Below are positions 1,854 to 22,286 of a stretch of 24,000 nt of DNA, piece after piece. The stretch is from an uncultured Dehalococcoidia bacterium. Its GTDB lineage: Bacteria; Chloroflexota; Dehalococcoidia; SZUA-161. The first letter of the stretch is position 1. Every line of letters begins with the position of its first letter. The notes under the pieces were generated by a model. The model was not told the origin of the DNA. It ran no database searches and saw only the letters and a program-made list of their open reading frames with translations. The stretch is from positions 5,804 to 29,803 of the forward strand of contig CAZCXP010000009.1 of the NCBI GenBank assembly GCA_964502665.1, in the 5' to 3' direction. Made by a program: the position numbers and the translations under genes.

Positions 1854-2399
1854 CTAGCCTGGCCGGGTCAAGGCGCAGAGCACGAAATAGACGAGAAGCG
1901 AGTATTCTTTTTCCCAAGGGAATTTATGATACCCCTGACCGAGAAAGACACCATCTTCGATCTTTCGGAGTTCATCAATTGTGCCAAACATAGGCGATGG
2001 AAACGGGGCATAGACCAAAGCAAGACACTGGTCTTGGTCAAACATCGACTCCTTGATGCAGGTATCAAAGGAGAATCGACGGGGTAGCAGCCGATTCTGA
2101 TACAGGTTGAGTCCCTTCCCTGTCGTGTCTTCATCGAAGCGAGTGACGAATCTCTTTCCAGTCCAGCGGGCAGAAGGGTTATCGAAGCCAATGCGTGTAA
2201 GTAGTTTCATCCGCCACGAAGTCTTGGGATTCCATGCCAGGAAACTACCTGCGGTGTCTCCTTCAAGCTCTTCAAAAGAGGGTGTCTTGCCTTCCTTGAA
2301 CAACCAATGAAGGTCATCAAAGGAGTATCCTCTCAATTTAGCCATAATTGCTTGAGCATTCTCCCTGGAATGGCGTTGTACAGCCACAGTAGCAGACAT
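1854..2399 (-). CDS. GXWXG/DUF4334-like protein (181 aa)
   Basis: The track ORF 1854..2660 is trimmed to the internal ATG at 2399, which is preceded by GAAAGGAGGG. The sequence shows W-x-GKRF (ARWTGKRFVTRFDED) followed by LALVYAP...IDELRKIEDGVFLGQGY...YFVL, which resembles the GXWXG plus DUF4334 two-domain layout. The first GXWXG motif is degenerate. It ends 30 nt upstream of the GRE start, which implies an operon. Confidence 0.55.
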   Translation of the reverse strand: MSATVAVQRHSRENAQAIMAKLRGYSFDDLHWLFKEGKTPSFEELEGDTAGSFLAWNPKTSWRMKLLTRIGFDNPSARWTGKRFVTRFDEDTTGKGLNLYQNRLLPRRFSFDTCIKESMFDQDQCLALVYAPFPSPMFGTIDELRKIEDGVFLGQGYHKFPWEKEYSLLVYFVLCALTRPG

Positions 2400-3021: not shown

Positions 3022-3726
3022 TCAGAAAGCCATGTCTGGTTTCCACACTTGCCATACCTTGCCCGCGAGGTCTGGCCCCGGCTTCAACGTCGGCTTGCCT
3101 GGCTGCCATCCGGATGGCGTTGCTTCTCCCGTTTCTCTGACATGCTGAAATGCTTTGACCTGCCGAATCAGCTCTGCAACATTTCGCCCTACAGGAGGTG
3201 TCACAACTTCCATTGCCTGAACTACACCATCTGGATCAATGAGGAAACGACCTCGAACGTCTACGCCTGCATCCTCATCGTATACTCCATAGGCCGCGCC
3301 GATTCGTCCTCCAGCATCAGAGAGCATCGGATATGGCACGCCCCCTGGCACCATCTTCGAGAGTTCTTCTTCCTGCCATATTTTATGGGTGAATCGGCTG
3401 TCGGTGCTCATTGATAGTACCTGTACTCCCAGCGACTTGAGTTCTTCATGTTTGACAGCAACTGCTGTCAGTTCTGTTGGTCAGACGAATGTGAAATCAC
3501 CGGGATAGAAACACAGTACGACCCATTGACCTCTGTAATCGGAAAGCTTGATGTTCTTGAAGCCGCCATCCACAAAGGCGCTGGCCTCGAAATCCGGTGC
3601 TGGTTTGCCAACCTGAGGAGTCATCTTACGCGCCTCCTTATGCGTTTCTAATGGTGAGGATTCTTCTAATTCCGGCAAGATCGGCCCTTTCGCTGGTTGC
3701 ACACACTGGTCTTTTGCTTCGGGCAT
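3022..3726 (-). CDS. Peroxiredoxin (AhpC/Prx1 family) with an in-frame UGA at the peroxidatic position; putative selenocysteine peroxiredoxin (PrxU-like)
   Basis: Track ORFs 3481..3726 and 3022..3411 are in the same frame (3483-3411=72). The only stop between them is the TGA at 3481-3483. Read-through gives [49 protein letters not shown], which is the canonical FTFVCPTE active site with TGA in place of Cys. The ATG at 3726 has GGAGGT 5 nt upstream. The internal ATG at 3624 ([12 protein letters not shown]) has AAGGAGG 8 nt upstream and would give a canonical 200-aa Prx with Sec at position 48. Confidence 0.8.
3453..3483 (-). promoter_or_regulatory. UGA recoding site plus candidate bacterial SECIS hairpin
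   Basis: On the mRNA the sequence reads UGA, then 10 nt, then a 7-bp perfect stem UGACAGC / GCUGUCA (3453-3470) with apical loop AGUU. The loop has G at its second position and lies 17 nt after the UGA. This geometry matches published bacterial SECIS models. Confidence 0.55.
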
Positions 3727-3755
3727 CGGATACCTCCTTTCCTATTTGCCCCACA

Positions 3756-3775
3756 GATAATTGATGATATTTGAT
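3756..3775. promoter_or_regulatory. Tandem AT-rich 10-mer (GATAATTGAT GATATTTGAT), a candidate Fur/PerR-family-like operator between the catalase stop and the prx start
   Basis: Two adjacent 10-bp copies differ at one base. They contain GATAAT-type hexamers like Fur-family boxes and lie 30-50 nt upstream of the prx ATG at 3726. Confidence 0.25.
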
Positions 3776-3782
3776 ACTAGGG

Positions 3783-5294
3783 TTACTGAGCAGTAGCCTT
3801 AACCCGCTCCTCCTGTGACATCTCAGCTAAACGCTCGACCTTCTTAACATCCAGTCCCAGCCCCTCCGCTACACGGCGGCCATACTCTGGATCTGCCTTG
3901 TAAGAGATGGCTGCCTGCCGCAACTGAATACGCTTCTGAGCGTTGCAAAGGTGGGTCGTTATATTCCCAATCAGATGGTCTCTGTCCTCGTCTGTCATCA
4001 CTCGTCTATATAATTCCCCTGCCTGGAAGAAATCGTCGTTGGGGTGAGTGTACGGTTGACGCGCCGCCAGGCCGGAAACCTCAAAGGGTGGCTCACTGGC
4101 GTCAGGCTGTGGTTCCGGCCCTCCGAAACTATTGGGGTAATAGTTAGGAGCCCCGCCGAAGTTGCCACCCACTTGCATAAACCCATCACGTTGGTAATTG
4201 TCTACCTTGGCCGCTTTAGGTCTGTTTATTGGGATCAGGTGGTAGTTAGGGCCTAGGCGATGGCGATGAGTGTCATGATAGCTGAAGAGCCGCCCCTGAA
4301 GTAGCTTGTCAGGAGATGCTGCTATACCGGGGACGAAGTTGGCGGGCGAAAAAGCGGCTTGCTCTACCTCGGCGAAGTAATTCTCCGGGTTACGGTTGAG
4401 GACCATGCGGCCGATCGTGATCGGTGGATAGTCAGCGTGAAACCACACCTTGGTTATATCAAAGGGATCAAAGCGGTACTCTGTAGCCTGCTCAGGGGTC
4501 ATGATCTGCACTTGCACCCTCCACGATGGGTACTCTCCACGTTGAATTGCGTCACAGAGATCGCGTGTCGCATGGTCTGGGTCCTCGCCCTTAAGCTTGG
4601 TCGCTTCATCGCGGGTCAAATTCTGAATCCCCTGCTCAGTTTTGAAGTGGTACTGCACCCAGAAGAATTCACCTTTGTCGTTGTACCACTTAAAGGTGTG
4701 ACTGCTGTAACCATTCATGTGCCGGAAGGTTCTGGGCGTGCCGCGGTCGGAAAACAGAATGGTCACCTGATGTATCGATTCAGGTGTTAGGGAGAGGAAG
4801 TCCCAGAACATGTCGGCGTCCTTGAGGTTGGTCTCCGGATTACGTTTCTGTGTATGGATGAAATCGGGGAACTTGAGCGGATCACGGATGAAGAAAACGG
4901 GTGTATTGTTCCCCACCATGTCGTAGTTGCCATCCTCCGTATAGAGCTTAACTGCAAAACCGCGAGGGTCCCTTTCGGCATCGGCGGAGCCCTTCTCACC
5001 CCCGACTGTGGAGAAGCGCGCAAAGACGTCCGTACGCTTCCCGATCTTTGAAAGGAATTTGGCCTTGGTGTACTTGGTTACATCGGCGGTAACCTCGAAA
5101 TAGCCATGTGCCCCTGCTCCTTTGGCATGTACTACTCGCTCTGGAATCCGCTCACGGTCAAAATGAGCCAGCTTCTCCAGCAGGTGGGCATCCTGTATCA
5201 GAGCGGGACCGGGGCTGCCCGCAGTTACGGTGTTCTGGTCGTCCTCAACCGGCTTGCCGAAATTGGTTGTCAACTTCTTGTCATGAAGCGTCAT
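3783..5294 (-). CDS. katA: Monofunctional heme catalase (small-subunit, clade-3-like), 503 aa
   Basis: The sequence has [24 protein letters not shown] (distal His), the [12 protein letters not shown] motif and [17 protein letters not shown] (proximal Tyr). I moved the start from the track's 5387 to the ATG at 5294 ([13 protein letters not shown]), which is preceded by GGGGAGGTG with a 5-nt spacer. Confidence 0.95.
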
Positions 5295-5346
5295 TTCACA
5301 CCTCCCCTTTTTGCCAATATCCCATCCGTTCCGCGTGGTACGGTGA

Positions 5347-5374
5347 ATTATAAACATATGGGAATGCCTGTCAA
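5347..5374 (-). promoter_or_regulatory. Sigma70-type promoter for the catalase gene
   Basis: The minus strand reads TTGACA (5374-5369), a 16-nt spacer, then TATAAT (5352-5347). Both hexamers match the consensus, about 50 nt upstream of the ATG at 5294. Confidence 0.55.
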
Positions 5375-5555
5375 GAGGTAATAACAAGTCGACAAAAATG
5401 CTGCGAAACTACAAAAGACATCGGGCGCCGCATTGATCGGTGATGCAGTCCATGATGAGGGCATCACGCCGGAAACAGAGAAGGCAAAAGCACTCTACAG
5501 CAATGGTTCCTTTTTCTGATTCCTCCGTTTTTCGTCCCTGGCTTGCCTAGAATCC

Positions 5556-5584
5556 TTGCAATAGTGTGATTATTTAAATAGAAT
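5556..5584 (+). promoter_or_regulatory. Sigma70-type promoter for the DUF2804/heliorhodopsin transcription unit (near-leaderless)
   Basis: TTGCAA (5556-5561), a 17-nt spacer, then TAGAAT (5579-5584). Only 10 nt separate the -10 element from the ATG at 5595, and no SD lies between them. Confidence 0.45.
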
Positions 5585-5594
5585 GTCGTAAATC

Positions 5595-6632
5595 ATGGGC
5601 GGATTGTTGGAGACCCCTGACAGGGCAGTAGTGGACGGGCAAGTGCAGTTCGGCCGCTTCGCGCGGCCGTTCCGGGAGCTGAATCTCCTGGATGCACAGT
5701 GCGGGATTCCCCGACTGGGCGGGCTACGGCGTTTCCGGCTCAAGGAGTGGGAACACGTCGCACTGGTACATCACGACTGGTACCTCAGCCTGGCGATCGT
5801 TGATGTCGGGTTCCTGGTGACCTCCTGGCTGCACCTTTTCGACCGGCGGAACCACGAGGCCTTCGAGCACGTGCGGAAGCTACCGCCGGGCAGGTTTCGC
5901 GCCCCAGCGAACGTATGGGATCATTCTGGAAAGATCGAGACCAGGGGATACCGGGTGTTGGTGCACAACCACCTTGAGCGCCAGGTCCACCGGTTCCAGA
6001 TCGAGGTGCGCGGAGAGCGGTCTCTACCCGCTGTGGCGGGCACCCTGCTGCTTCACGAGGACCCTGCCCGGACGCAGCCGCTGGTGGCGCTGCTTCCCCT
6101 GGGGCCCAACCGCCCCATGTTCACGCATAAGTCAGCCTGCCCCGCCAGCGGACTGCTTGAAATAGGGGGCGAGAGGGTGGAGTTCACCCCGGACCGCAAC
6201 GTGGGGTTGCTGGACTACCACAAGGCGTACTACCCCCGCAACACCTTCTGGAGGTGGGCCACTTTCGCCACCATCGACGCGACCGGGAACCTGCTGGGAG
6301 TCAACCTCACTCACAACGTCATCGAGGACGACACGCGATTCAATGAGAACTGCATCTGGCATGGGAACTCTATCTCGCTGGTAGGGGCTGCTCGCTTCGA
6401 AGTCCCGAAGGACCCCACGCAGCCGTGGACGATTCGGACCTCCGATGAAGCCGTGGACCTGGAACTCACCCCGCAGGGATTGCGCCGGGAGCGGGTGAAC
6501 CTCGGCCTCGTCCGGTCAGCCTACGACCAGCCGTACGGCCTGTACTGCGGCACACTGGTGGATTCCGGAGGCAGGAGACACGCCGTCGAGAAAGCCTTCG
6601 GCGTGGCCGAGGACCACGTTGCGAAGTGGTAA
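5595..6632 (+). CDS. DUF2804-like protein (345 aa), function unknown
   Basis: A full-length ORF with LKEWEHVALVHHDWYLSLAIVDVGFL near the N-terminus and a C-terminal FGVAEDHVAKW. Both resemble what I recall of the DUF2804 family. The gene is strongly G/C-biased: my spot counts of 60-nt lines give 63% and 70% GC. Confidence 0.55.
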   Translation: MGGLLETPDRAVVDGQVQFGRFARPFRELNLLDAQCGIPRLGGLRRFRLKEWEHVALVHHDWYLSLAIVDVGFLVTSWLHLFDRRNHEAFEHVRKLPPGRFRAPANVWDHSGKIETRGYRVLVHNHLERQVHRFQIEVRGERSLPAVAGTLLLHEDPARTQPLVALLPLGPNRPMFTHKSACPASGLLEIGGERVEFTPDRNVGLLDYHKAYYPRNTFWRWATFATIDATGNLLGVNLTHNVIEDDTRFNENCIWHGNSISLVGAARFEVPKDPTQPWTIRTSDEAVDLELTPQGLRRERVNLGLVRSAYDQPYGLYCGTLVDSGGRRHAVEKAFGVAEDHVAKW

Positions 6633-6697
6633 GCTGCCAATTGTCTATTCCTACTGAAGATGCTGATACTTAAGAATACTTAAGGCAGGAGGGCGAA

Positions 6698-7492
6698 ATG
6701 GAGGCTGACACCAGGCAAATCAACGATACCAGCTTCAAGTTCCTGCGAAGATTCAATGCTGCAATGTGTGTACTGCACCTTGTTCAAGCAGCAGCCATTT
6801 TCGCACTGAGTAATGATTACTCTGTCACCTTAACGACCTCTTTTCTCAAACGATTGCCTGGCGTGGAGTTCCCTGAGACGGCTCTGGAGGGATTATATGA
6901 TCTTCGACTCGGCCCGATGGTTGCTGTTTTTCTGCTAATATCGGCCATAGCACATTTCATTATGGCCTCGCCATTCGGGTTCCCCTGGTACGTGCGTAAC
7001 CTTAAAAAGCAAACAAACTACCTCAGATGGTATGAATACTCTCTCAGTGCTTCACTGATGGTGGTCCTCATAGCAATACTCAGCGGTATATATGATGCCC
7101 CGACCTTAGTTTTGCTTTTCGTACTAACTGCGGTGATGAGCTTCTTCGGGCTAATGATGGAGCTGCACAATCAGACTACAGAGAAGACCAACTGGACAGC
7201 CTACATATTTGGCTGCATCGCCGGTATAGTCCCCTGGATTATCATATTCTGGTATTTCTCTGCAGCTTTCGCCTCAGCAGAGGGAACGATCCCGACCTTT
7301 GTTTACTACATACTGGCCTCACTCTTTATTCTGTTCTCTAGCTTCGCCTTGAATATGTTCCTGCAGTATAGAAAGGTAGGGCCCTGGAAAGACTACCTGT
7401 TTGGCGAAAAAGTCTATATGATCCTGAGCCTTGTAGCCAAGTCGGCACTTGCGTGGCAGGTATTCGGAGGAATTCTGGCCAGGTCACTTTAA
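6698..7492 (+). CDS. Heliorhodopsin (264 aa, 7-TM retinal protein)
   Basis: Blocks closely match heliorhodopsin 48C12 as I recall it. These are FNAAMCVLHLVQAAAIFALSNDY, LRWYEYSLSASLMVVLIA (counterion Glu113), FGCIAGIVPWIIIFWY, FALNMFLQYRKVGPWKDYLFGEKVYMILSLVAKSALAWQVFGG (Schiff-base Lys248, codon 7439-7441), plus His27 and His86. A strong SD, AGGAGGG, lies 4 nt upstream of the ATG. Confidence 0.9.
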   Translation: MEADTRQINDTSFKFLRRFNAAMCVLHLVQAAAIFALSNDYSVTLTTSFLKRLPGVEFPETALEGLYDLRLGPMVAVFLLISAIAHFIMASPFGFPWYVRNLKKQTNYLRWYEYSLSASLMVVLIAILSGIYDAPTLVLLFVLTAVMSFFGLMMELHNQTTEKTNWTAYIFGCIAGIVPWIIIFWYFSAAFASAEGTIPTFVYYILASLFILFSSFALNMFLQYRKVGPWKDYLFGEKVYMILSLVAKSALAWQVFGGILARSL

Positions 7493-7710: not shown

Positions 7711-7947
7711 TCAGCGCTGTGAATCTGGCGGGAGTCCACGGAACTCGCCTTTGCTACCCTCGTAGTTAAAGACATCCTCAATACTTACGTTGAAAAGCTT
7801 AGCAATGCGGAAAGCCAAACCCAGCGATGGGTCATACTTACCATTTTCAATGGATACAACGGTCTGCCTCGTAACATCGAGCTTGTTTGCCAGTGCCTCC
7901 TGGGTGAGATCGTGCATTGCCCGAAAGACCTTTAGCCTGTTCTTCAC
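7711..7947 (-). CDS. XRE/Cro-C1 family helix-turn-helix transcriptional regulator (78 aa, YozG-like)
   Basis: The sequence LTQEALANKLDVTRQTVVSIENGKYDPSLGLAFRIAKLFNVSIEDVF is a textbook HTH_3-type small regulator. Confidence 0.9.
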   Translation of the reverse strand: MKNRLKVFRAMHDLTQEALANKLDVTRQTVVSIENGKYDPSLGLAFRIAKLFNVSIEDVFNYEGSKGEFRGLPPDSQR

Positions 7948-7960
7948 TCAGTTCCCTCGT

Positions 7961-8341
7961 TCACAGTTTTCGGCTGAAGTAGGAGTAAAAAGTTAGATAC
8001 ACCAGCAGTACCACGCAGACAGAGTAGCCTAGAGCTTCGCCGAAGAAGGCCAGTTCGACTGAGAGATTCTCTTTCAATGATAGAAGAACAACTGCCGCCA
8101 AGCCCATTGCAGGCAGCAAGAGCCGCATAGTAGCAGCCGATGCCTTCTCATAAATGTGGTGGATGCGTTCATCATCGATGGCTTCTTCAGTAGCCCTCCG
8201 GCACAAGTACATAAGCCCTACAGCCACTGCTACGGCCGTAACAGGCACCACCGGGTTTCCTGCCGTTACTGACCATCCAACCACTATCGCCAGTGCGACG
8301 ACTAGAACAGCCCTGCAGACTTTGTACATTCTGGTGCTCAT
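7961..8341 (-). CDS. Small 4-TM membrane protein, DUF2178-like, partner of the downstream XRE regulator
   Basis: Four hydrophobic segments surround a cytoplasmic loop, AIDDERIHHIYEKASAA, which carries a DER...KA motif. The gene ends 13 nt upstream of the HTH gene, an arrangement common for this membrane protein plus small XRE pair. Confidence 0.55.
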   Translation of the reverse strand: MSTRMYKVCRAVLVVALAIVVGWSVTAGNPVVPVTAVAVAVGLMYLCRRATEEAIDDERIHHIYEKASAATMRLLLPAMGLAAVVLLSLKENLSVELAFFGEALGYSVCVVLLVYLTFYSYFSRKL

Positions 8342-8755: not shown

Positions 8756-10285
8756 TCACATTCTAGCTCTCAACTTGTCGGCCCCAACGTGACAGAGGGT
8801 GCTGCTCGCTGCTGGCTCTGCGGCCAGACTCTCTCGGTCTGTTGGGCACGGAACCCTGGAAAGGCAGAGTTGTTCTGCTAGTTCAAGGTGTCTCAGGACC
8901 TGATTTCCCCACGAGAATTCCTCAGCATACCCAAGGGCTCTCTCCGAGATCTGCGCCCTGAGCTTGGGGTGCAGGATAGTCTGTGCTATCTTGAAAATGA
9001 GTTGTCCAAAGTCCGCGCTGGCCAATCCTCCAGCCATTTTCACAGTTTCGCCAACGCCCTCCCTGTCGCGGCAGGCGATTGTTGTGCCAGCGCCCAGGGC
9101 GTGCGCCACAATTCCGCTCTGAGTGCAGTTGCTGGGCCAGTAGAAATAGATATCCAGAGCTCTCAGCATGGCTGCGAGCATATCTCCAGGCAGATAGGTC
9201 TCCAGGAAGAACTGTCCTGCACCGTTGTGTCTGGCCTTCAACTCCCCGGCGAACTCGCTGTCGACGCTATTGTCGACCTCCCTTAATAGGCCTGTATACA
9301 CCGCTGCGATCTTGTGTTTGGGCAGCACCTGCTGCAGCACGTTATGGACATGGTAGAGTAGCTCCGTACCCTTGCTGGTGGTGATGAATCCGGTGCCGCC
9401 AATTATGACTGTGTCGGGGTCGAGGAACACGCGTTGCTGTCTCAGGTTGTCCTTGCTTAGCTTATCCAGCCCGGATTGGTCAACCAGATACTCATGGATC
9501 CTTGCCTTGGCTTCGGCTTTGCTCATTCTGGCGAATCTAGGGTAGAGATGAGTACCATGCCTTAGCACGTGTACTTTGTCGGTATACCCGGGGAATGCGT
9601 GCGTGACCGCCTTATACACACCGTCGCTGAACACTGTGATGGCATCGGTGTGAGGAAGAAGAGCGTGCAGGAAGGAATACTCCTCGTTGCGCAGCCCGTA
9701 GCGGGTCTCGTTGCTTTGGAAGTGGAGAGTGTGGAGGGTAACCACTTTTGGCATGTACAGGTGTCTGAGCATGTTGACAAATCTGGCATTGTCTCTCCAG
9801 ATACCGAATTCGTGTTGGAACCAGAGGACTTGGTTTGCGTGGGGTTTGAGTCCCTGCAAGATGGAGGTAGCGGAGAAATCGTGGCGGCTGGAGATGCCGT
9901 ACCAGACGTGGTTGGTGGCTGAGGGTTGGTCCTCGCTCAGGGGGACTCCGTAGTTATCCAGATCGAACGATAACACATCCCAACAGTGGGCTGGCGCCTC
10001 TCTGGTGAGAAAATACGCGTAGTCGGCAATTCCGCAGATTATGGGCTTGTATGGGGAGACCAAGGCAATGGATGGCATCATACCCTTCTCTTGATGCCAG
10101 AATCTCTCTGATGCCGCCAGGTGTTGCCTGCTCTTGGGCTCGTTCAGTAGGCCTAGAACGTCTGCCACCGGTTTACTTTGCGTCGACTTGCTAGTTGTCA
10201 CCACGTCTTGGCTACCTACTGTCCTCGGTGCGGTCAGGATAAGCGAGTTATCATATCTACAAATATCCTGCCCGAACTCTATCAT
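8756..10285 (-). CDS. Glycosyltransferase, GT-B fold (GT4-like) with a ~68-aa N-terminal extension
   Basis: SIALVSPYKPIICGIADYAYFL is a typical GT4 N-terminal motif. A C-terminal Glycos_transf_1-like half follows (GGTGFITTSKG...YFYWPSNCTQSGIVAHALGAG). The ATG at 10285 has AAGAGG 5 nt upstream. The track's GTG at 10291 and the internal MMPS at 10081 are alternative starts. Confidence 0.7.
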   Translation of the reverse strand: MIEFGQDICRYDNSLILTAPRTVGSQDVVTTSKSTQSKPVADVLGLLNEPKSRQHLAASERFWHQEKGMMPSIALVSPYKPIICGIADYAYFLTREAPAHCWDVLSFDLDNYGVPLSEDQPSATNHVWYGISSRHDFSATSILQGLKPHANQVLWFQHEFGIWRDNARFVNMLRHLYMPKVVTLHTLHFQSNETRYGLRNEEYSFLHALLPHTDAITVFSDGVYKAVTHAFPGYTDKVHVLRHGTHLYPRFARMSKAEAKARIHEYLVDQSGLDKLSKDNLRQQRVFLDPDTVIIGGTGFITTSKGTELLYHVHNVLQQVLPKHKIAAVYTGLLREVDNSVDSEFAGELKARHNGAGQFFLETYLPGDMLAAMLRALDIYFYWPSNCTQSGIVAHALGAGTTIACRDREGVGETVKMAGGLASADFGQLIFKIAQTILHPKLRAQISERALGYAEEFSWGNQVLRHLELAEQLCLSRVPCPTDRESLAAEPAASSTLCHVGADKLRARM

Positions 10286-10515
10286 ACCCACCTCTTAGGG
10301 ATATACAATGGCTCTTTCGGTGGGCCTCAGGTGGGAAAATAGTCCTGCAATGTGTGAACGAGCGACGGGGCACATGGCGGTTGCCACCAACGCCTGGAAT
10401 GGTCGCAGGACTCCAACCCGAGCTGGGGAGCGAGTGTCAGTCGCCCGCAGTGTTCAAAAAGCCTTCCTTCTGGACCTGTGGTAGGAAAAGTGTGGATGAG
10501 TTAGGTAGCAGGGGG

Positions 10516-10544
10516 TTGATTCCTGCGAAGTAATCTCGTATTAT
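10516..10544 (+). promoter_or_regulatory. Sigma70-type promoter for the cohesin/FN3 surface protein gene
   Basis: TTGATT (10516-10521), a 17-nt spacer, then TATTAT (10539-10544). The track's ATG at 10543 lies inside this -10 element, which argues for the downstream GTG start. Confidence 0.45.
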
Positions 10545-10638
10545 GGTCGAAACCGGTGCCGGGCGATGGCGCACGAGCGGAGGGACAGTCAGCCAGGATG
10601 TGCTTCTGCCCTCGTTGTACGGAAGAGGTTGGTATATC

Positions 10639-12078
10639 GTGAAATACAGGAATGTCCGGCGGGCGCTGATACTGCTCACCCTTCTTTGTGTGGTGGCAGG
10701 CCTATTCTTTGCTGCCGGAGTATCTGCACAAGGTGACACCACGGTTGATATCTCACCGGCCAGCCAGACGGTCGCTCCACTGGAGGTATTTACAGTTGAC
10801 GTAGTAATTGCCCCAGCAGTTCCCATAGCTGGTGTCGAGTTCGACCTGAGCTTTGATCCCTCGCTTCTAACTGCAAATAGCGTTGCCGAGGGCAATCTAC
10901 TGAATCAGAATGGCGATGAGACATTCTTCCTGCCTGGCACAATAGACAATGTTGCTGGGACTATCACCGGCGTTGGTGGTGCCATCTTAGGAGTTGGTGC
11001 CAGTGTGTCATCGCCAGGGACATTTGCCACAATCACCTTCACTGCCAAAACAACGCCGGGAACCTCACCACTTGACTTGACGTACGTTCTAGTGGGAGAC
11101 CCTGCAGGAGACCCGGTACCTATAGTGGTGACCGATGGGAGTGTAACGATTGAGATACCACCCACGCCGACACCGACACCCACGCCAACACCGACACCCA
11201 CACCTACGCCGATTGATACCACTCCACCCACGATAACCGGGGTTCAAGCCATTGATATCACCCCGACATCGGCAACCATCATCTGGACCACGGATGAGCC
11301 GGCGGACAGCGTGGTCCGCTATGGAACCACAAAGCCACCAACTACTGAAGTATCAGACCCTGCACTTGTTACCAGTCACTCCGTAACCTTAAGCGGGCTC
11401 GGGACGACCTACTACTACGAGGTGCAATCAACGGATGAAGCTACAAACACCGCCATCGACAACAATGGAGGCGCCTACTATTCCTTTACCACACCGGTTG
11501 TTGTTAGCATTTCCGGATGGGGGTGGTGCAGCGACTGCAGCAAGCTTGCCACCGCCACGCTGGAGGGGAACGCGACGATGGTTGAGAGGTCGCATGCCTC
11601 GGAGAGCTTCTCTCTGCACCTTGTGGGCAACGTCACGCTACACATATCAAATGCGCCCGATGAGACGATCGAACTTGATATGTATGGCAGCAGGGTCAGG
11701 TCGTTGTTCTACCTCCGGCAGGAGACCCCAGGCAGGTCCGCGAGCTTAGATGGAACGTGGATCGATGCCCCAGGTGATCAGTACTATATCGGCGCAACAG
11801 GCATGATTGCGCTGCCTAACCCTGAGGGTGAGGTACTTAAAACAGCAAAGCTTTGCTTTGTCGTGCTGCGAACACCTGACGTGGAGGTCCCCATCGCAGA
11901 GCCAGGTAGCTTTGTGGAAGATGTGGAGTCTATGATCACCAGGTTTGTAAGATTCATGGACAGACTACTTGATAGCTTGATAGGTACTGGCTTCGGGGAA
12001 ACACTGAGTGCCATTCTGGGCAAGGTAGCGACACTGTTGGCTGCGCTGCGGGCGCTTGGCGTACCCTATATTCCGTAG
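10639..12078 (+). CDS. Secreted surface protein: signal peptide, cohesin-like domain, (Pro-Thr)n linker, FN3-like domain, and a ~190-aa C-terminal domain of unknown family
   Basis: The GTG at 10639 gives VKYRNVRRALILLTLLCVVAGLFFAAGVSAQG, a signal peptide with an A-x-A site. ISPASQTVAPLEVFTVDVVI...VPIAGVEFDLSFDPSLL is cohesin-like. The linker reads PPTPTPTPTPTPTPTPTP. ITPTSATIIWTTDEPADSVVRYG...YYYEVQSTDEATN is FN3/PAP-N-like. Confidence 0.8.
   Translation: MKYRNVRRALILLTLLCVVAGLFFAAGVSAQGDTTVDISPASQTVAPLEVFTVDVVIAPAVPIAGVEFDLSFDPSLLTANSVAEGNLLNQNGDETFFLPGTIDNVAGTITGVGGAILGVGASVSSPGTFATITFTAKTTPGTSPLDLTYVLVGDPAGDPVPIVVTDGSVTIEIPPTPTPTPTPTPTPTPTPIDTTPPTITGVQAIDITPTSATIIWTTDEPADSVVRYGTTKPPTTEVSDPALVTSHSVTLSGLGTTYYYEVQSTDEATNTAIDNNGGAYYSFTTPVVVSISGWGWCSDCSKLATATLEGNATMVERSHASESFSLHLVGNVTLHISNAPDETIELDMYGSRVRSLFYLRQETPGRSASLDGTWIDAPGDQYYIGATGMIALPNPEGEVLKTAKLCFVVLRTPDVEVPIAEPGSFVEDVESMITRFVRFMDRLLDSLIGTGFGETLSAILGKVATLLAALRALGVPYIP
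11158..11211 (+). repeat. (Pro-Thr) dipeptide repeat coding tract, 18 codons
   Basis: The tract reads cca ccc acg ccg aca ccg aca ccc acg cca aca ccg aca ccc aca cct acg ccg. It is an imperfect hexanucleotide repeat encoding PPTPTPTPTPTPTPTPTP. Confidence 0.95.
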
Positions 12079-12103
12079 GTGAAGTCACCATATTCCAGCA
12101 CAT

Positions 12104-12439
12104 TCACCTACTCCCCAAGGACTTAAACCACAATTTCACTCTTTCCCCTGTGCGACTTGGCCACGACTGCTTTCTGGCCCAGACCCATATCAGCGCTACC
12201 CCTGTCAGGCCAGACACCATCAGCGAGGTATTTAGCAGCGTTATCCTGACATCGAAGAGCCAGTTGAACCAGAAGACAAGCAGGGGCACCAAGGCTATGG
12301 ATAACCCAAAGGACAGCGCAACCCTCTCGATCCAGTCAATGTTTCTCTTTGCGAAGAAGACATAGCTCCAGGCGAATCCAGGCACAAAGAGAACGAATAC
12401 CGAACCAAAGAATATCCTGAATCCCTCTAACACAGTCAT
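12104..12439 (-). CDS. DUF1616-like membrane protein, short form (111 aa; only the N-terminal 3-TM module)
   Basis: VFVLFVPGFAWSYVFFAKRNIDWIERVALSFGLSIALVPLLVFWFNW matches the conserved N-terminus of DUF1616 (lPGY...iERlaLSfGLSia.vPL) as I recall it. GGAGG lies 7 nt upstream of the ATG. The gene is 3 nt downstream of the preceding gene. Confidence 0.55.
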   Translation of the reverse strand: MTVLEGFRIFFGSVFVLFVPGFAWSYVFFAKRNIDWIERVALSFGLSIALVPLLVFWFNWLFDVRITLLNTSLMVSGLTGVALIWVWARKQSWPSRTGERVKLWFKSLGSR

Positions 12440-12442
12440 ATA

Positions 12443-14047
12443 CTAGCCTCCGCCGAGATACCTGTACACTACTGCCCCTTCTCGATAAGCCTCCTGAAAG
12501 AGTGGGTTCTGGAACTTCCGTAGGTTAAGATAGTTCCCCTGATTCTGCGAGTGGTAGATATATATCGGTGGCTGATAGGCATCCAGGAACCGCTCTGCCG
12601 TCTCCAAATCGCCTGCCTTGAGGAATTCAGCCCATTCCTTCTCGCCGTGAGCGCTCCACTCAAAAAGCCCCGGCGCGATCACCCTCCTCTGGCTCCATCC
12701 CAGAACCCAGGGGGCATCATAGCTGGTGGCGAGTATATATGCATCCTCCTCGGTATTCTCTGCTATCCACTGAACAGCTTCCAGCTGCTGCTCCGTTATC
12801 AGCGGCTTGGCGCTTCTTGTCCCGTCTACCGTTGGCATTCCGGCTACCGCGATTAGCAGAAGCACGATGATCACTGCTGCCACCTTAACCATCCCACCTC
12901 TCCGCAACAGGGTACACTCGATGCCTACAGCGGCCAATATCACAAAAGCGATGTCCAGCGGGATGATGAACCTCTTGAAAAAGAACAGCTGAAAAAGGAC
13001 AATGATCGAGCTTATCACAAAGTAGAAGAATATGCTATTCCAGTCCCTTCTCAGCGCCAGATACATAGCTCCTATCAGAGTGAAGGGCAGGTAAGCCAGT
13101 GAGACCGCCCGGTACGTTGCGAAATCGAAGAATGTCCCCCCGCCTAATGCCTCCCCTGTCTCAATATTGGTGATCGCCGTCTCGATGGTGCCCGATAACA
13201 CTGCCCAATTTGCTTCCCACCTGGGAATCCAGAAGAGGGCAATCAAGGCAGCAGCGCCAAGCGCTGCAAATACGATCCCCTTCCGTCGATGCAATATGAA
13301 GTAAGGTATCAATATCAGTGCAAACAGCAGAAACTCAGGCCGATGGAAAATGCCCAAGGCGGCAAACATTACCGCCATCAGGCCATACCTTTTCTTCTCC
13401 AGGGCATAGATGGAGAACAGCAGAAACATTAACCCCAATACATTCTTGAAGTAGAACATGGTGAAGACGTCAAACTGGGTATATGAAACAGCATATAGGA
13501 CAGCCGCCACCAATCCTGCCCTCTGACCAAAGAGGCCTCTGGTCACCACGAAAACCGGGAAGACCAAGAATGCCCCCAGGAAGGGAAACAGAAAATTCAT
13601 GAACTCGAGGGCATCGGCACCGGCCACAACATGCAGGGTATCGGAGAGCACAGGCAGGCCCTGCGGCATCATTTCCTTCACCCAGCCTGCCAGGTCTGCC
13701 TCCGGTATCTGGGGAAGAGCGCTGGCATAAAGCTCCATGGTATGCTTATAAAGGCCTGGGTCATACCCCAGGGGAACGGTGCTGTGGGTGTGAGGAAAGA
13801 GCCGGACGGAGAGGGCAAATAGAAAGGCCGCCAGCAATATGGGCAACGCCCCCTTGAGGCTTCTGGCCTGCGATGACCTTGCCGCTAACAAAGCAGGTAT
13901 GGCAAGCAGTGGCAGGGTGTAGGCAAACAGTTCATAGTTGAACGGGGGAGAAAGGATTTCCAACTCCCTGAGCAAGACCAGGATGATGAAAATCAGGGCC
14001 AGCTGAAGGTAGCTGAGGTCAATGACCTTGGCTATCTTCTTCCTCAT
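12443..14047 (-). CDS. Polytopic membrane protein with a C-terminal extracytoplasmic domain; GT-C-fold glycosyltransferase-like (ArnT/PMT/OST-like)
   Basis: 534 aa with roughly 12 or more hydrophobic segments, followed by a ~130-aa soluble tail (EQQLEAVQWIAENTEEDAYILATSYDAPWVLGWSQRRVIAPG...IYIYHS). The gene neighbours a polyprenyl-P sugar synthase and a flippase. The functional call rests on architecture only. Confidence 0.55.
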   Translation of the reverse strand: MRKKIAKVIDLSYLQLALIFIILVLLRELEILSPPFNYELFAYTLPLLAIPALLAARSSQARSLKGALPILLAAFLFALSVRLFPHTHSTVPLGYDPGLYKHTMELYASALPQIPEADLAGWVKEMMPQGLPVLSDTLHVVAGADALEFMNFLFPFLGAFLVFPVFVVTRGLFGQRAGLVAAVLYAVSYTQFDVFTMFYFKNVLGLMFLLFSIYALEKKRYGLMAVMFAALGIFHRPEFLLFALILIPYFILHRRKGIVFAALGAAALIALFWIPRWEANWAVLSGTIETAITNIETGEALGGGTFFDFATYRAVSLAYLPFTLIGAMYLALRRDWNSIFFYFVISSIIVLFQLFFFKRFIIPLDIAFVILAAVGIECTLLRRGGMVKVAAVIIVLLLIAVAGMPTVDGTRSAKPLITEQQLEAVQWIAENTEEDAYILATSYDAPWVLGWSQRRVIAPGLFEWSAHGEKEWAEFLKAGDLETAERFLDAYQPPIYIYHSQNQGNYLNLRKFQNPLFQEAYREGAVVYRYLGGG

Positions 14048-14726
14048 CCCCCTCCCTCCAGATCAGCAGAAACAATAGCACGATCAGCCCACCACTTATC
14101 ACTGATATGACATAGGAAAGCCATCCTATCTCCTCGGTCTTGTACCACACGATGGCTATTCCGGCCAGCCCGGCGCAGACTACGGTGACAATGTCTCCTC
14201 TGCCGAGTCGTCGCTTCTCTCCCCTCACCCCTTCCGGCCTGGTAAGAACAGAAGCCCCGGTCTCGAGGCCATCCGCTGCCGAGAATTCTTCCACCGTGGG
14301 CTCCTCGATTTTCTCCACCCAGGCCCGCTTACTGTGATCCCAGACCCACGTGGCTCTGGGCTTGAGCTCGTTTGCGTCCTCGCATCCGGACTTGCTGCCA
14401 GATTCAGGTTCCTCCACAGGTCTTGCCCCGATCAGGGCTCCTCCAAGACCGTCTGGCTCTGTTGGTTCATCGATTTGCGCCCTCACCCTCTCCGGCCTGG
14501 CAAGAACGGCCGTTACCCCCACTACGATGACCGCGATGAGCAGATAATCGAGACTCAAGTAAGAAGAGACACTTCTCTCCCAAATGCTCTCCACCAGTAG
14601 CAATAATAAGAAAGTAATGAGCAGCACAGCAAACAGTTGCTGGGCAAGCTCAGCCGCTCTCTTTATATGCCTGTTCTCCCGCCCTTTCATGGAGAGCGTC
14701 GTCAACCGGCTACCTAATCTCCCCAT
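14019..14726 (-). CDS. Hypothetical 4-TM membrane protein with an acidic central linker
   Basis: Two N-terminal and two C-terminal hydrophobic helices flank a Glu/Pro-rich segment. The ATG at 14726 overlaps the upstream stop (TGATG) and has GGAGAGGA upstream. The 3' end overlaps the next gene by 29 nt. I recognise no family. Confidence 0.5.
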   Translation of the reverse strand: MGRLGSRLTTLSMKGRENRHIKRAAELAQQLFAVLLITFLLLLLVESIWERSVSSYLSLDYLLIAVIVVGVTAVLARPERVRAQIDEPTEPDGLGGALIGARPVEEPESGSKSGCEDANELKPRATWVWDHSKRAWVEKIEEPTVEEFSAADGLETGASVLTRPEGVRGEKRRLGRGDIVTVVCAGLAGIAIVWYKTEEIGWLSYVISVISGGLIVLLFLLIWREGDEEEDSQGH

Positions 14727-15532
14727 CACATCCTCTCCCAGACGGGCGGTATTTTCAGACGTATTTCAATCCAGTCTATAGGGATAGTCCTCTCCTGTTC
14801 CTCCGTCTGGCTGAGATGGGGCGCCCTAAAGCAAAAGCTGAGCTTATCATCCTTGATGAAGAGGTCTTCTCTCTTCCAGCTCGCTTGTGCCGTCATCCAG
14901 CCATCATCCTGCGATGGCGCGATATAGTCTCCATAGTCAACGATTACATAATCCGCGTTCGCCCTGGCCCACGAAAGATCGTATTTCAAATCCACCACCT
15001 TACACCCCTGATCTATGCTCAAGCCCTTGTCATTCCGTGCCACCACCGAGCCCACGGGCGGGTTCTGCAGGAATTCCTCCACGCTGTCAAAGCTAGCGCT
15101 GCTTCCCTCGCCTGTGGCATATACCTTGATGCTGCCATCCTCCGCCACAAGTGGAAAATCCGCCAGTTGTCCATAGAAGGGAACGTAGATGTCCTGCCAA
15201 CAATAGCTCCACTCCGCCTCATCCCTAGCCCCCAACATGAACTTTCTATCGCTGGGGAGATTATCCTCGAATCTCACCCTCACCTCAACCTCAGCAGCAT
15301 CTCCCAGCCTGCGGCTATCCAGCTCAAAGTATACCAAGTCCTTCTCCAGTTCCCTGAAGCTGGTACCATTTGCCACCATCTTGTCCGAGATTCTATCAAA
15401 AGGCCCGGTAATCATGGCCTTCCCCCCGCTATCATCCCCACCGACGTCGATAAGGTAGGTGGGGGTGCTGCCAAAGGGCAGTAGATTCACCCAGCCGATA
15501 TACCCCAGCACCACGATAGGAATAAGCCACAA
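14726..15532 (-). CDS. Hypothetical N-terminally anchored extracytoplasmic protein (268 aa), no recognisable family
   Basis: The ORF has a TTG start and an N-terminal hydrophobic segment, WLIPIVVLGYIGWVNLL. The rest is a soluble, beta-rich-looking sequence. The reading frame stays open upstream with no earlier ATG, GTG or TTG, so the true start is uncertain. Confidence 0.5.
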   Translation of the reverse strand: MWLIPIVVLGYIGWVNLLPFGSTPTYLIDVGGDDSGGKAMITGPFDRISDKMVANGTSFRELEKDLVYFELDSRRLGDAAEVEVRVRFEDNLPSDRKFMLGARDEAEWSYCWQDIYVPFYGQLADFPLVAEDGSIKVYATGEGSSASFDSVEEFLQNPPVGSVVARNDKGLSIDQGCKVVDLKYDLSWARANADYVIVDYGDYIAPSQDDGWMTAQASWKREDLFIKDDKLSFCFRAPHLSQTEEQERTIPIDWIEIRLKIPPVWERM

Positions 15533-15638
15533 CCCCTTAAGGAACCTGTTGCCCTTGCCAGTTTCCTGCTCAGCTATCTCGCCCGTTTTGGCACTCCTAT
15601 TGAGTGATTTTGTCCCTGTTCCCTGGATAGGGAAGCCG

Positions 15639-17114
15639 TCACGGGGTGAGGTCTCCAGAACCCATGAACCTCTCCAATGGCACTATCCGCCTGAAGGTTT
15701 CCAGATCGTCTCTCCCAAGCCCTTTGATCAGCCACAGTGTGCCTCCATACAGCGCCAGTAAGCCTATGTAGATAAGCGGGAGCCATGGCGGAGAGAGCGA
15801 GACCTGGAGGGCAATAGCATAAACCGCTCCCGCTGCCAGGCAGATCTTGGCCAACGAGCCAGGGCTAACCAAAGCCCGAAACCGCCAGAATACATAGACT
15901 GCTGCAGCACACATGCCGAGAAATCCGGTTGTGGTGGTCGCCCAGGCTGCCCCCTCCAGCCCGTACTCCGGTACAAGCAGGATGTTCAACCCGATGTCTG
16001 TTCCTGCCAGCAGCAGGGCCATGGCCAGAACCACCCCCGGCCTCCCGCTGCCCATGATTACATAGGCCAGAACAAAGAATATGCTTAAGAACCCCAGCCC
16101 GAAGGCCAGAATACTCAGGGTCTCGGCCGCCTCCACATACCTGGAAGAATAGACCAGGGTGAGCAAATCAGCGGAGCTAGCGCTTATCAGAAGGACCACC
16201 GGTACCAGCAGCATTAACATGTACTTCATCGAATGCCGAATGTAGCTAGCAGCAAGCTCCGTGTTGGCTGTAGAAGTTGCCCTCGAAATGGAGGGCAACA
16301 AAGTGAGGCCCAATGCCGCAAAAAGGAAGTAGGGCAACCGGGCTATGGTCGCCGCGGAGGTGTAATAGCCGGCGCTGGCTGCACCAGGGGCAATGGCCTT
16401 TACCGCAAAGAGGTCCACGTTCATGATCAAGAGCAGTATCGCTGAAAACAGCGTAGCCGGCAAGCCGAATTTCAGCAGCTTGCTATATTGAAAGCTGGTA
16501 GGGCTCCGTTGCACCCTTCCCAGATACCTAAGCGCGAGAACGAAGCCAAGCAAGGCAGCAACGAGGTACCCCAGGATGGCCCCCTTAATGCCCAAACCAA
16601 GTAGCACCAGGGCGAAAACAGCGCCTACCCTCACAATAGATGAGCATATCCTCACTTTGGCTTGCTTGCCAAACTGCTTGAGCCCATTGAGATAGCCATC
16701 ACTATAGATAGCTCGCAGGGCATAGAACGGAACCACAAAGGCTGATACCCTGATATAGGGGGTAAGCTCGGGGTCACCGAGCCAATCGGCAATGAAGCCT
16801 GCCAACCCGAAGACAAGCGCAAAGACAATCAGTGAAATCACCACCTGAGAACGGTTCCCAGCTCGTACTATACTGCCCAACCGGGCATTGTCCTCGGCGA
16901 TATACTTGGAGGCGCCTTGCGGCCAGCCGGAGGTCAGCAGAAGATCGGCAATCGTCATCAAAGCCAGCACTATCCCAAATAGTCCATAGCTTTCGGGTCC
17001 CAGATAGCGTCCCAGCCAGAAGTGAATGACATAGCCGCTGACCAGGAAAACGCCGGCAGCAACCATGAGGTAAAGCGTGCCTCTACCCATTCCAGTCTTG
17101 GCTTCGTTGTTCAT
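15639..17114 (-). CDS. MOP-superfamily oligo/polysaccharide flippase (Wzx/MurJ-like), 491 aa
   Basis: About 14 TM segments with the typical polysaccharide-biosynthesis-protein N-terminus (LYLMVAAGVFLVSGYVIHFWLGRYLGPESYGLFGIVLAL) and its two-fold repeat organisation. Confidence 0.8.
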   Translation of the reverse strand: MNNEAKTGMGRGTLYLMVAAGVFLVSGYVIHFWLGRYLGPESYGLFGIVLALMTIADLLLTSGWPQGASKYIAEDNARLGSIVRAGNRSQVVISLIVFALVFGLAGFIADWLGDPELTPYIRVSAFVVPFYALRAIYSDGYLNGLKQFGKQAKVRICSSIVRVGAVFALVLLGLGIKGAILGYLVAALLGFVLALRYLGRVQRSPTSFQYSKLLKFGLPATLFSAILLLIMNVDLFAVKAIAPGAASAGYYTSAATIARLPYFLFAALGLTLLPSISRATSTANTELAASYIRHSMKYMLMLLVPVVLLISASSADLLTLVYSSRYVEAAETLSILAFGLGFLSIFFVLAYVIMGSGRPGVVLAMALLLAGTDIGLNILLVPEYGLEGAAWATTTTGFLGMCAAAVYVFWRFRALVSPGSLAKICLAAGAVYAIALQVSLSPPWLPLIYIGLLALYGGTLWLIKGLGRDDLETFRRIVPLERFMGSGDLTP

Positions 17115-17265
17115 AACCTCTCACCCGCCGTGCTCGACATCCCTGAGTGGGCATCGGGCTGACCTTCGGCTTCACCCCGAGGCCGGAATTCCATTCGGAG
17201 CTGGTGGTCGGCTTGCCGATAGGGGGCTACCCAAGCACCATCGTTGAGCGAAGAAGAGGCAGTGC

Positions 17266-18807
17266 TCAATCCTGCACTACCTCCCTCAGCACCTTCCCAT
17301 CCATGTCTGATGGCATATCCACGCCCATTAGCTTCAGGATAGTAGGGGCAAGGTCGATTATCTCGGCATTGTCTATTTTACATCCCTTGGTGACGCCCCC
17401 TCCATAGGCAAGGAAAATCCCATGACCTCTGTGCTCCCCCGATTTGAGTGTCTTGGGTGGCGAGAATATTTTCCCTGAGGGGAAAGCAAGCATAGTAGCG
17501 GCAGCATAGGAGTAATCCCTCATGCAGAGGTTGATATCGGGAAGCATATCTGTTTTGTTGCCCCAGTAAAGCTCTTCCCTCTTCCACACGTGGTCCACCA
17601 GTCTTTCCCCGCTGTCAGTGACTTTGATCGCCTTCAACCGGGCTATTATCTCCTCCCTCAGCTCGTCATACTCTTCAGGGGCAACACTGCCTTGTGTCTC
17701 CCTCCCTTTCAGGTTAATGAAAATCTCGCCATAGTAGCCGAAGGAATACGCCTTGGTTCGACGCCAGTCTATATCCTTCCAGGTGTAGCCAATGCTATCT
17801 AGAACCCTCTTCGGCAACCCGCGGGCCGCAGAGGGCGATGGTGTGGCTACCCTGCCCATGCCCATCTTCAGGGCTAGCCCGATCACCGACTGTGGGGTAA
17901 CGCCCAGAAAACGCAATAGCGCCTTCAGTGCGCTGGAGGGAGACCTTTTTAATTTCAGATAGCCCTTCTCCTTCAGCCACTGATTCATGTTAAAATCCTT
18001 CACATACATGCCGAAGCCATGGTCCGACATCAGGACCAGGGTGCTATCCTGGGGAAGCCGCTGCATCAATCTCTCAAGAACACTGTCAATCTGCACATAT
18101 GTCTCCAGTATCTTGTCCTTGAACTCCTCATCTGCCTCATAAGCGGGATGTGACTCATCCATGTACTTCCAGTACCAGTGCTGGATATGGTCAGTGGCCA
18201 TGAAGGTTATCATATAGAAGTCCCAGTCTTCCTTTTCTATCAAATAGCAGGCGACCTTCGCGTGTATCTCAGTCAGTTCAGCAATATCTCGGGCGAATCT
18301 CCTCTTGTCCTCACTTCTCTCCGAATACCTGCTATCTTCAGATATTCTGAACTCCGGTATCGCCCTGAGCAGCTCCCTTTTCAGCTCCCTGGGGTAAGTG
18401 AAGTTGCTGCGAAGGCTGGGGGTGGTGAAGCCAGAGACCATATAGCCATTTACTTCGTGTGGTGGATAGGTAAAGGGCACGTTTATAACGCAGCACCGTT
18501 TGCCCTCTCTCGATAGAATCTGCCAGATCGTTTCCTCGGTCCTGTACTCCCTCCAATCCACATCGAGCCCGAAGCTTTTATTGAGCCTGTAAAAGGAAAA
18601 CTGCCCGTGCTTCCCCGGGTTTTTTCCGGTCATAAACGAACTCCAGGCGCAGGGGGTTATCGGCGGCACAGTGGATTTGAGCCTGCCCCAGGCCCCGCCC
18701 CGCATCAGCTTCTCGAAGGTCGGCAGCCTCCCCTGTTCGACCCACGGCTCTATCAGGTCGAAGGTAGCCCCGTCCAGGCCGATCACCACTACTCTATTTG
18801 CGGTCAT
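17266..18807 (-). CDS. Alkaline-phosphatase-superfamily enzyme (type I phosphodiesterase/nucleotide pyrophosphatase-like), cytoplasmic, 513 aa
   Basis: VVVIGLDGATFD carries the metal-binding Asp. STVPPITPCAWSSFMTGKNPGKHG carries the Thr nucleophile motif. LVLMSDHGF and GEHRGHG are metal ligands. No TM segment is present. Confidence 0.8.
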   Translation of the reverse strand: MTANRVVVIGLDGATFDLIEPWVEQGRLPTFEKLMRGGAWGRLKSTVPPITPCAWSSFMTGKNPGKHGQFSFYRLNKSFGLDVDWREYRTEETIWQILSREGKRCCVINVPFTYPPHEVNGYMVSGFTTPSLRSNFTYPRELKRELLRAIPEFRISEDSRYSERSEDKRRFARDIAELTEIHAKVACYLIEKEDWDFYMITFMATDHIQHWYWKYMDESHPAYEADEEFKDKILETYVQIDSVLERLMQRLPQDSTLVLMSDHGFGMYVKDFNMNQWLKEKGYLKLKRSPSSALKALLRFLGVTPQSVIGLALKMGMGRVATPSPSAARGLPKRVLDSIGYTWKDIDWRRTKAYSFGYYGEIFINLKGRETQGSVAPEEYDELREEIIARLKAIKVTDSGERLVDHVWKREELYWGNKTDMLPDINLCMRDYSYAAATMLAFPSGKIFSPPKTLKSGEHRGHGIFLAYGGGVTKGCKIDNAEIIDLAPTILKLMGVDMPSDMDGKVLREVVQD

Positions 18808-21106: not shown

Positions 21107-21115
21107 GAACGACTA

Positions 21116-22285: not shown

Positions 22286-22286
22286 G

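Follow-up and report, generated by a model that had tools for sequence, protein, structure and literature searches.

A heliorhodopsin gene beside a catalase-selenoperoxiredoxin operon in an uncultured Dehalococcoidia bacterium: a peroxide-defence neighbourhood confined to one species

The function of heliorhodopsins (HeRs) is known for few members only, so that hypotheses about them come mainly from gene neighbourhoods. We analysed the neighbourhood of an HeR gene in a 24-kb stretch of DNA (contig CAZCXP010000009.1 of assembly GCA_964502665.1, hereafter the window; G+C content ~53%) from an uncultured Dehalococcoidia bacterium. This gene follows one for a DUF2804 protein, and back to back with the two lie genes for a catalase (katA, 1.4 kb from HeR) and a selenocysteine (Sec) peroxiredoxin (prxU, 3 kb from HeR; Table 1). 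A preliminary description of the same sequence had taken this juxtaposition to fit the idea that HeRs are light sensors anticipating photo-oxidative stress. Its annotation is correct, including that of a peroxide-defence neighbourhood in a probable anaerobe, but the context was over-read: the arrangement occurs in a single species only and thus provides no real evidence that the HeR controls peroxide defence. The locus is probably best explained as two independent back-to-back units, HeR having come to lie beside katA-prxU and DUF2804 by a recent species-level rearrangement and not as part of a conserved functional module.

Conservation of the arrangement around the heliorhodopsin gene

Conservation was assessed in 165 HeR loci (designated L with a number) from GTDB species genomes, Joint Genome Institute (JGI) metagenomes and individual homologue look-ups, with 80 of more than 537 contig matches taken in. 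Grouping at 85% HeR identity gave 101 lineages with usable flanks averaging 7.7 kb per lineage. The complete layout, katA-prxU divergent from DUF2804-HeR, was shared with L006 only (CAYVES010000165), the nearest public sequence. This 5.3-kb contig from an uncultured Dehalococcoidia metagenome-assembled genome (MAG) is 96.5% identical to the window across 5 kb (blastn) and hence conspecific. Between the two sequences katA, prxU, DUF2804 and HeR were all under purifying selection, with ratios of nonsynonymous to synonymous substitution rates (dN/dS) of 0.02-0.28. Linkage did not recur beyond the species: with the window/L006 lineage included, DUF2804 was adjacent to HeR in 1 of the 101 lineages, a catalase lay near HeR (≤6 kb) in 2 (the other being L109/L118) and a peroxiredoxin in 2 (the other being L014). 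The preliminary description had itself proposed that a lack of conserved linkage to katA, prx or DUF2804 in related genomes would mark the adjacency as incidental, and this lack is what we observed.

The same picture emerged from the nearest orthologues of each gene, which are unlinked in close relatives. HeR orthologues had a PNPOx gene upstream in L174 (83% identity) and L001 (81%), a DUF2178-HTH pair downstream in L002 (80%), and PNPOx, 2-thiouracil desulfurase or DUF1722 genes upstream in L003-5 (74%); UvdE and DUF2071 were among the other flanking genes. The PNPOx context of this closest clade (74-83%) looks ancestral, and the window arrangement derived from it. The gene in question, for a PNPOx_N-type flavoprotein, sits just 5' of HeR in L001 (9393..9833) and L174 (243..686), divergent in both, and in L003 (7943..8326). 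DUF2804 orthologues (91%, 86%, 84% and 83% identity) occurred in four unrelated contexts with no HeR nearby; the distance between HeR and DUF2804 in CP070667, a complete genome, is 0.5 Mb. As for the catalase, its orthologue in L170 (89%) is still paired with a Sec-type prxU, and neither HeR nor DUF2804 lies within 6 kb, while those in L169, L171 and L173 (92%, 90% and 89%) lack both prxU and HeR as neighbours. Because the pair occurs without HeR, and other catalases without prxU or HeR, katA-prxU is an autonomous module.

In the second catalase-bearing lineage the order on one strand is Fur-family regulator, catalase, DUF1295, acyl-CoA synthetase, HeR. The catalase is present in two of the five informative contigs; the other three have enough upstream sequence and carry none. 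In this lineage (L118, 124..7911; also L109, L110, L112 and L113) the core consists of DUF1295, AMP-binding acyl-CoA synthetase, HeR, DUF2177 and SDR/DUF2867 genes, one of which is missing in some contigs, with the Fur-catalase pair inserted upstream. The sole tight HeR-peroxiredoxin pair of the survey was found in L014 (3172..4500), a Dehalococcoidales MAG in which HeR is followed, 22 bp past its stop codon, by the start of an AhpC/TSA-family peroxiredoxin gene (Tpx/BCP-like, 170 aa).

Under a model of one randomly placed catalase per genome, 0.2-0.6 catalase-adjacent lineages would be expected by chance, compared with two observed including the window and one without it. As the window had been chosen for its adjacency it was excluded from the count, and the survey thus gives no evidence of catalase enrichment. 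Genes that did recur near HeR encode an ABC-transporter ATPase (13 of the 101 lineages), an alpha/beta hydrolase (7; named from sequence only), DegV (6), nitroreductase and MsrB (5 each), and DUF1295, SDR/DUF2867, UvdE, SRAP and PNPOx proteins (4 each; PNPOx named from sequence and the precomputed annotation of related loci). These neighbours agree with published lists of HeR partners, which include an ABC transporter, alpha/beta hydrolase, SDR and DUF2177; the frequent operon partners, ten recurrent groups, do not include catalase, peroxiredoxin or DUF2804 (PMC11109279). Rubrerythrin and desulfoferrodoxin genes lay near HeR in no surveyed locus. For MsrB, the 5 lineages compare with at most ~0.6 by random placement; at least three are archaeal, and possible shared ancestry of the loci was left in the count. 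The MsrB gene (SelR domain) was located 0.1-4.4 kb from HeR in L049 (7239..7652), L146 (2690..3520), L045 (8046..8447), L161 (4983..5399) and L066 (1234..1635). The presence of MsrB, UvdE and SRAP near HeRs is mildly consistent with an association between HeR and the repair of light damage, which does not single out the window locus.

The heliorhodopsin and the divergent katA-prxU pair

The open reading frame (ORF) at 6698..7492 matched the HeR profile hidden Markov models (HMMs) of Pfam (PF18761; 1.1e-97, 326.6 bits with a cut-off of 26.7, profile positions 1-242 of 242) and NCBIfam (equivalog NF038020; 336 bits, cut-off 100), and its top match in the PDB was TaHeR (6is6; 5e-78, 53% identity over 251 columns). 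H27, H86, E113 and K248 were unchanged in 35 homologues and in register with TaHeR H29, H88, E114 and K244 (6is6 chain numbering); we take the conserved His pair to be TaHeR H23 and H82 in the published numbering. The identification as HeR made in the preliminary description is borne out, as are its residue numbers and motifs (Lys248 in SLVAKSALAWQ, Glu113 in RWYEYSLS, and both His). Judged by its sequence, the protein is a canonical HeR with the Schiff-base Lys in transmembrane helix (TM) 7 and the Glu counter-ion in TM3; an inverted seven-TM topology, retinal binding and a long photocycle are predicted from the gap-poor alignment to solved HeR structures. The nearest known systems are TaHeR (Thermoplasmatales archaeon SG8-52-1; 6is6/7u55) and 48C12 HeR (6su3). 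The window HeR resembles TaHeR in its full-length alignment, the functional residues in register and an identical TM7 motif, SLVAKSALAWQVF. It differs in its bacterial host (Dehalococcoidia), in a slightly longer loop 186-196 (FSAAFASAEGT), where TaHeR has a 5-residue gap, and in that its TaHeR-type properties are predicted from its sequence.

The window ORFs of at least 140 aa that were scanned included no gene for retinal synthesis, a histidine kinase or a response regulator, in line with the preliminary description, which saw no retinal-synthesis gene and no obvious transducer; HisKA, HATPase_c and Response_reg gave no match in the ORFs scanned from -6.7 kb to +16.5 kb relative to HeR. The only regulator near HeR is a small HTH_3 protein, encoded together with a DUF2178 membrane protein. 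A DUF2178 plus XRE/HTH_3 module also stands beside HeR in L002 (2194..2799), in the opposite orientation; a remnant of synteny, locally inverted, is the probable explanation. The module was considered as HeR transducer and rejected, as just two related lineages have it and its orientation differs between them.

The product of katA is a monofunctional haem catalase (Pfam Catalase PF00199, 1.5e-200, 666.6 bits; Catalase-rel, 3e-20) in which the motifs RVVHAKGAG and RLFSYHDTH, containing the distal His and the proximal Tyr, are visible and whose closest named homologues are from Dehalococcoidia/Chloroflexota. The gene has a GGAGG ribosome-binding site (RBS), and the consensus promoter noted before matches the sigma-70 consensus perfectly (Table 1). 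The peroxiredoxin had been described as putatively Sec-containing, which holds with one correction: the gene reaches position 3726, past the ORF start used before. Its single in-frame TGA (3483..3481) takes the position of the peroxidatic Cys, and the resolving-Cys position is occupied by Thr (EATPSGW). With U modelled as C, the protein scored 383.5 bits against the PrxU equivalog NF040737 (cut-off 270). The TGA and a 34-residue N-terminal extension are common to the window, L006 and L170, and dN/dS between window and L006 was 0.018 for the whole gene, taken on both sides of the UGA. The UGA is followed by a 7-bp hairpin, a candidate bacterial Sec insertion sequence (SECIS), whose energy is no better than that of shuffled sequence (z-score -0.7) and which has no Rfam match; in L170 it shows one compensatory change (A-U to G-C) and one broken pair. 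Since the hairpin energy is not significant, we base the assignment as a PrxU selenoprotein on the position of the UGA, the conserved frame and the PrxU HMM. The protein is like its family in its score above the cut-off and in a UGA at the peroxidatic position, which a hairpin follows; unlike in the family, the gene shares an operon with that of a catalase and the SECIS is a candidate only. The window does not contain the Sec machinery (selABD, tRNA-Sec).

The katA-prxU(Sec) pair of L170 (6001..8259) has the same UGA and adjoins NifU and Fe-S assembly genes. With this pair found in the window, its conspecific L006 and one other related contig, katA-prxU(Sec) seems to recur in these anaerobes as a peroxide-defence operon of two genes. 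Horizontal transfer of the pair was rejected, as its GC content is unremarkable and the nearest named catalases are from Chloroflexota.

Could the HeR nevertheless be a light sensor that anticipates photo-oxidative stress, coupled to katA-prxU by a regulator in the 300-bp divergent promoter region or by direct enzyme binding? The adjacency is real, kept in L006 and accompanied by purifying selection on all genes. The photo-oxidative-stress hypothesis cited in the preliminary description has been published (Bulzu et al. 2021, mSphere, PMC8612252), and the same study reported at least three catalase-HeR adjacencies in Actinobacteria and found thioredoxin, peroxidase and catalase enriched in the vicinity of HeRs; adjacency and idea are thus already known. 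The independent same-strand Fur-catalase...HeR arrangement of L109/L118, the peroxiredoxin behind HeR in L014 and the MsrB genes in five lineages also speak for such coupling. Like the published cases, the window HeR lies within a few kilobases of a catalase and a peroxiredoxin in a monoderm; unlike them, it belongs to a probably anaerobic Dehalococcoidia host, its linkage is not conserved, and no kinase or response regulator was found with it, whereas two-component systems are reported as enriched in HeR neighbourhoods generally (PMC8612252). Moreover, the HeR, DUF2804 and catalase sides are all unconserved beyond the species, katA-prxU stands as an autonomous pair elsewhere, the perfect-consensus katA promoter looks constitutive, and an inverted-repeat operator was sought in 5290..5600 and not found. 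With no two-component or other transducer gene among the ORFs scanned and a catalase count that, leaving the window out, does not exceed chance, we consider this coupling unlikely.

The DUF2804 protein and the remaining genes of the window

DUF2804 and HeR are encoded on the same strand, 65 bp apart, and are probably co-transcribed, given this spacing and the lack of a promoter- or terminator-like site between them. No RBS is visible upstream of the DUF2804 start at 5595 and a promoter-like site ends 10 nt before it, which suggests a leaderless or near-leaderless transcript. A direct repeat just 5' of HeR (ATACTTAAG-A-ATACTTAAG, 6665..6684) was dropped as a candidate operator: two positions differ in L006 and it is absent before HeR in 10 relatives.

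The AlphaFold2 (AF2) model of the DUF2804 protein was all-beta, with a predicted local distance difference test score (pLDDT) of 95.3 and a predicted TM-score (pTM) of 0.92. Foldseek matched it to CghA (a Diels-Alderase, 4e-8), kievitone hydratase (2e-7) and 25-phosphosteroid lyase (2e-6), within a range of 4e-8 to 1e-5, at a probability of 1.0, TM-scores of 0.38-0.57 and 9-11% sequence identity. A sequence-profile search of the PDB and a low-threshold Pfam scan revealed no relative. From the model we confidently predict a double beta-barrel fold and a soluble, enzyme-like protein. This fold is shared with the three enzymes; unlike them, DUF2804 has no sequence-level relation to any solved structure, and the likeness is one of fold only. 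The protein may be an enzyme for a lipophilic substrate, a substrate class suggested by the names of the fold matches; as modelled, the fold is a lead and not a function. In the literature searched, we found no paper linking HeR with DUF2804, and the sole context found for DUF2804 was a glycerolipid regulon in Pseudomonas.

In all three HeR functions characterised by experiment, a protein encoded in the HeR operon takes part: glutamine synthetase for AbHeR, which regulates it, photolyase for TfHeR, which assists it, and the ABC transporter OmrDE for OcHeR, which modulates it (PMC9529153, PMC9769723, PMC11109279). By analogy, the window HeR might be a light-dependent allosteric regulator of the DUF2804 enzyme: its gene too comes second in a short same-strand pair, closely spaced and uninterrupted by promoter- or terminator-like sites, and its partner is modelled with confidence as soluble and enzyme-like. 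Unlike in these operons, in which binding has been demonstrated, DUF2804 is outside the ten recurrent partner groups and is not conserved beside HeR. The pairing was seen in no other of the 101 lineages, DUF2804 orthologues of 91-83% identity have no HeR nearby, and DUF2804 is also present in diderm Deltaproteobacteria, HeR being reported absent from diderms (PMC8612252). A regulatory partnership of the two proteins is accordingly improbable in our judgement.

Kievitone hydratase is a member of the CrtC carotenoid-hydratase family, and such enzymes act on isoprenoid-type substrates. Together with the similarity to 25-phosphosteroid lyase and the retinal-synthesis genes missing from the ORFs scanned, this would agree with DUF2804 processing an isoprenoid, carotenoid or apocarotenoid to supply or modify the HeR chromophore in an organism without blh/crt genes. 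Against this, solved HeR structures have a lateral fenestration through which retinal is proposed to enter from outside. The fold matches in question had TM-scores of 0.44-0.57 at the low identity given above, the one literature context concerns glycerolipids, and the linkage of DUF2804 to HeR is found nowhere else in the survey, which argues against a chromophore-related role; we regard such a role as very improbable.

Table 1. Features of the window with their coordinates and supporting evidence.
Feature	Position	Strand	Evidence or remark
Glycyl radical enzyme, PFL2/glycerol-dehydratase subfamily, N-terminal 612 aa	3..1838	-	Cut by window start; Pfam PFL-like 2.1e-168
181-aa ORF with its own RBS	1854..2399	-	No Pfam or NCBIfam match; directly upstream of glycyl radical enzyme gene
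prxU, Sec peroxiredoxin, 234 aa	3022..3726	-	One in-frame TGA
Candidate bacterial SECIS hairpin, UGACAGC-AGUU-GCUGUCA, 7 bp, AGUU loop	3453..3470	-	RNA fold; begins 13 nt after UGA
katA, monofunctional haem catalase, 503 aa	3783..5294	-	Pfam
Sigma-70 consensus promoter of katA-prxU, TTGACA-16-TATAAT	5347..5374	-	12/12 match; ~50 nt 5' of katA ATG
Promoter-like site, weaker, TTGCAA-17-TAGAAT	5556..5584	+	9/12 match; ends 10 nt before DUF2804 ATG
DUF2804 protein, 345 aa	5595..6632	+	Pfam PF10974 1.7e-51
Heliorhodopsin (HeR), 264 aa, GGAGG RBS	6698..7492	+	Pfam, NCBIfam and PDB match
HTH_3 (XRE-type) regulator and DUF2178 membrane protein	7711..7947 and 7961..8341	-	Convergent with HeR; Pfam
Large surface-glycosylation cluster	8756..23273	mixed	Pfam

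The host is a Dehalococcoidia (Chloroflexota) MAG, and among the named homologues of HeR, DUF2804 and catalase the great majority come from Dehalococcoidia/Chloroflexota. It is probably a sediment-type anaerobe. Calling it a probable anaerobe is reasonable because of the glycyl radical enzyme, the selenoprotein and genes found in related contigs (rubrerythrin, desulfoferrodoxin, aldehyde:ferredoxin oxidoreductase and a 2-hydroxyglutaryl-CoA dehydratase-type gene). The glycyl radical enzyme, already recognised in the preliminary description, scored 484 bits against NCBIfam TIGR01774, below the cut-off because the protein is truncated. Upstream of it the blastn alignment of window and L006 is interrupted at 1842/2513: the segment 1843..2512 (~670 bp, holding the 181-aa ORF) is missing from L006, which has ~98 bp of unrelated sequence instead, a difference that reads as a strain-level indel. 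On the other side of HeR, the 15-kb glycosylation cluster encodes PMT_2 and DUF1616 membrane proteins, GT1, GT2 and GT4 transferases, a flippase and a phosphodiesterase, as well as a surface protein (10543..12078, plus strand) with a cohesin domain, a (PT)n linker and an FN3-like domain. An ORF that continues past the end of the window (~23600..24000, plus strand) encodes a signal-anchored protein with terminal GYGYGYG-type Gly/Tyr repeats. Scanning the entire window against Rfam and for tRNAs gave no matches.

A probable recent rearrangement and the prospect of a light-responsive module

Taken as two independent units, the locus would work as follows. The minus-strand unit, katA-prxU, would be a self-contained and strongly expressed H2O2-detoxification operon with a perfect sigma-70 promoter and strong RBSs. 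In the plus-strand unit, DUF2804-HeR, the HeR gene would probably be read from the DUF2804 promoter. As expected from the family, the HeR would bind all-trans retinal at K248 with E113 as counter-ion, the retinal being scavenged from outside the cell, would move no ions, and in the light would act by protein-protein contact with some partner. In a lineage with very little synteny, a rearrangement would have brought katA-prxU, DUF2804 and HeR together.

Several points weigh against this explanation. A lack of conservation does not prove a lack of function, and a recently formed operon can be adaptive. With the window counted, two independent catalase placements less than 3 kb from HeR have a P of ~0.02-0.13; together with the tight HeR-peroxiredoxin pair of L014 (22-bp gap) and MsrB near HeR in 5/101 lineages, they echo the redox-gene enrichment of Bulzu et al. 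(PMC8612252). In addition, many of the surveyed contigs are short, and the co-transcription of DUF2804 and HeR is deduced only from spacing and the lack of promoter- and terminator-like sites. It is conceivable, if quite unlikely, that the recent rearrangement made a working light-responsive module of HeR and DUF2804 that shares its divergent control region with katA-prxU, the HeR binding DUF2804 or the peroxide-defence enzymes in the light. If true, this would amount to an anticipatory defence for anaerobic sediment Dehalococcoidia exposed at the sediment surface and would give DUF2804 its first functional assignment; with a coupling of HeR to peroxide defence, the photo-oxidative-stress model would come to include strict anaerobes.

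On the explanation we prefer, by recent rearrangement of independent units, the locus is a further anecdotal case of HeR-catalase adjacency within an already published pattern, with ordinary members of known families. Two by-products come with it, the katA-prxU(Sec) operon and, as the one new detail of the locus, a confident fold assignment for DUF2804, an uncharacterised Pfam family. Beyond this, the locus illustrates how an attractive gene neighbourhood can mislead: a light sensor, a catalase and a selenoperoxiredoxin stand together in an anaerobe, and all three candidate partners of the HeR are unlinked from it in the nearest relatives.

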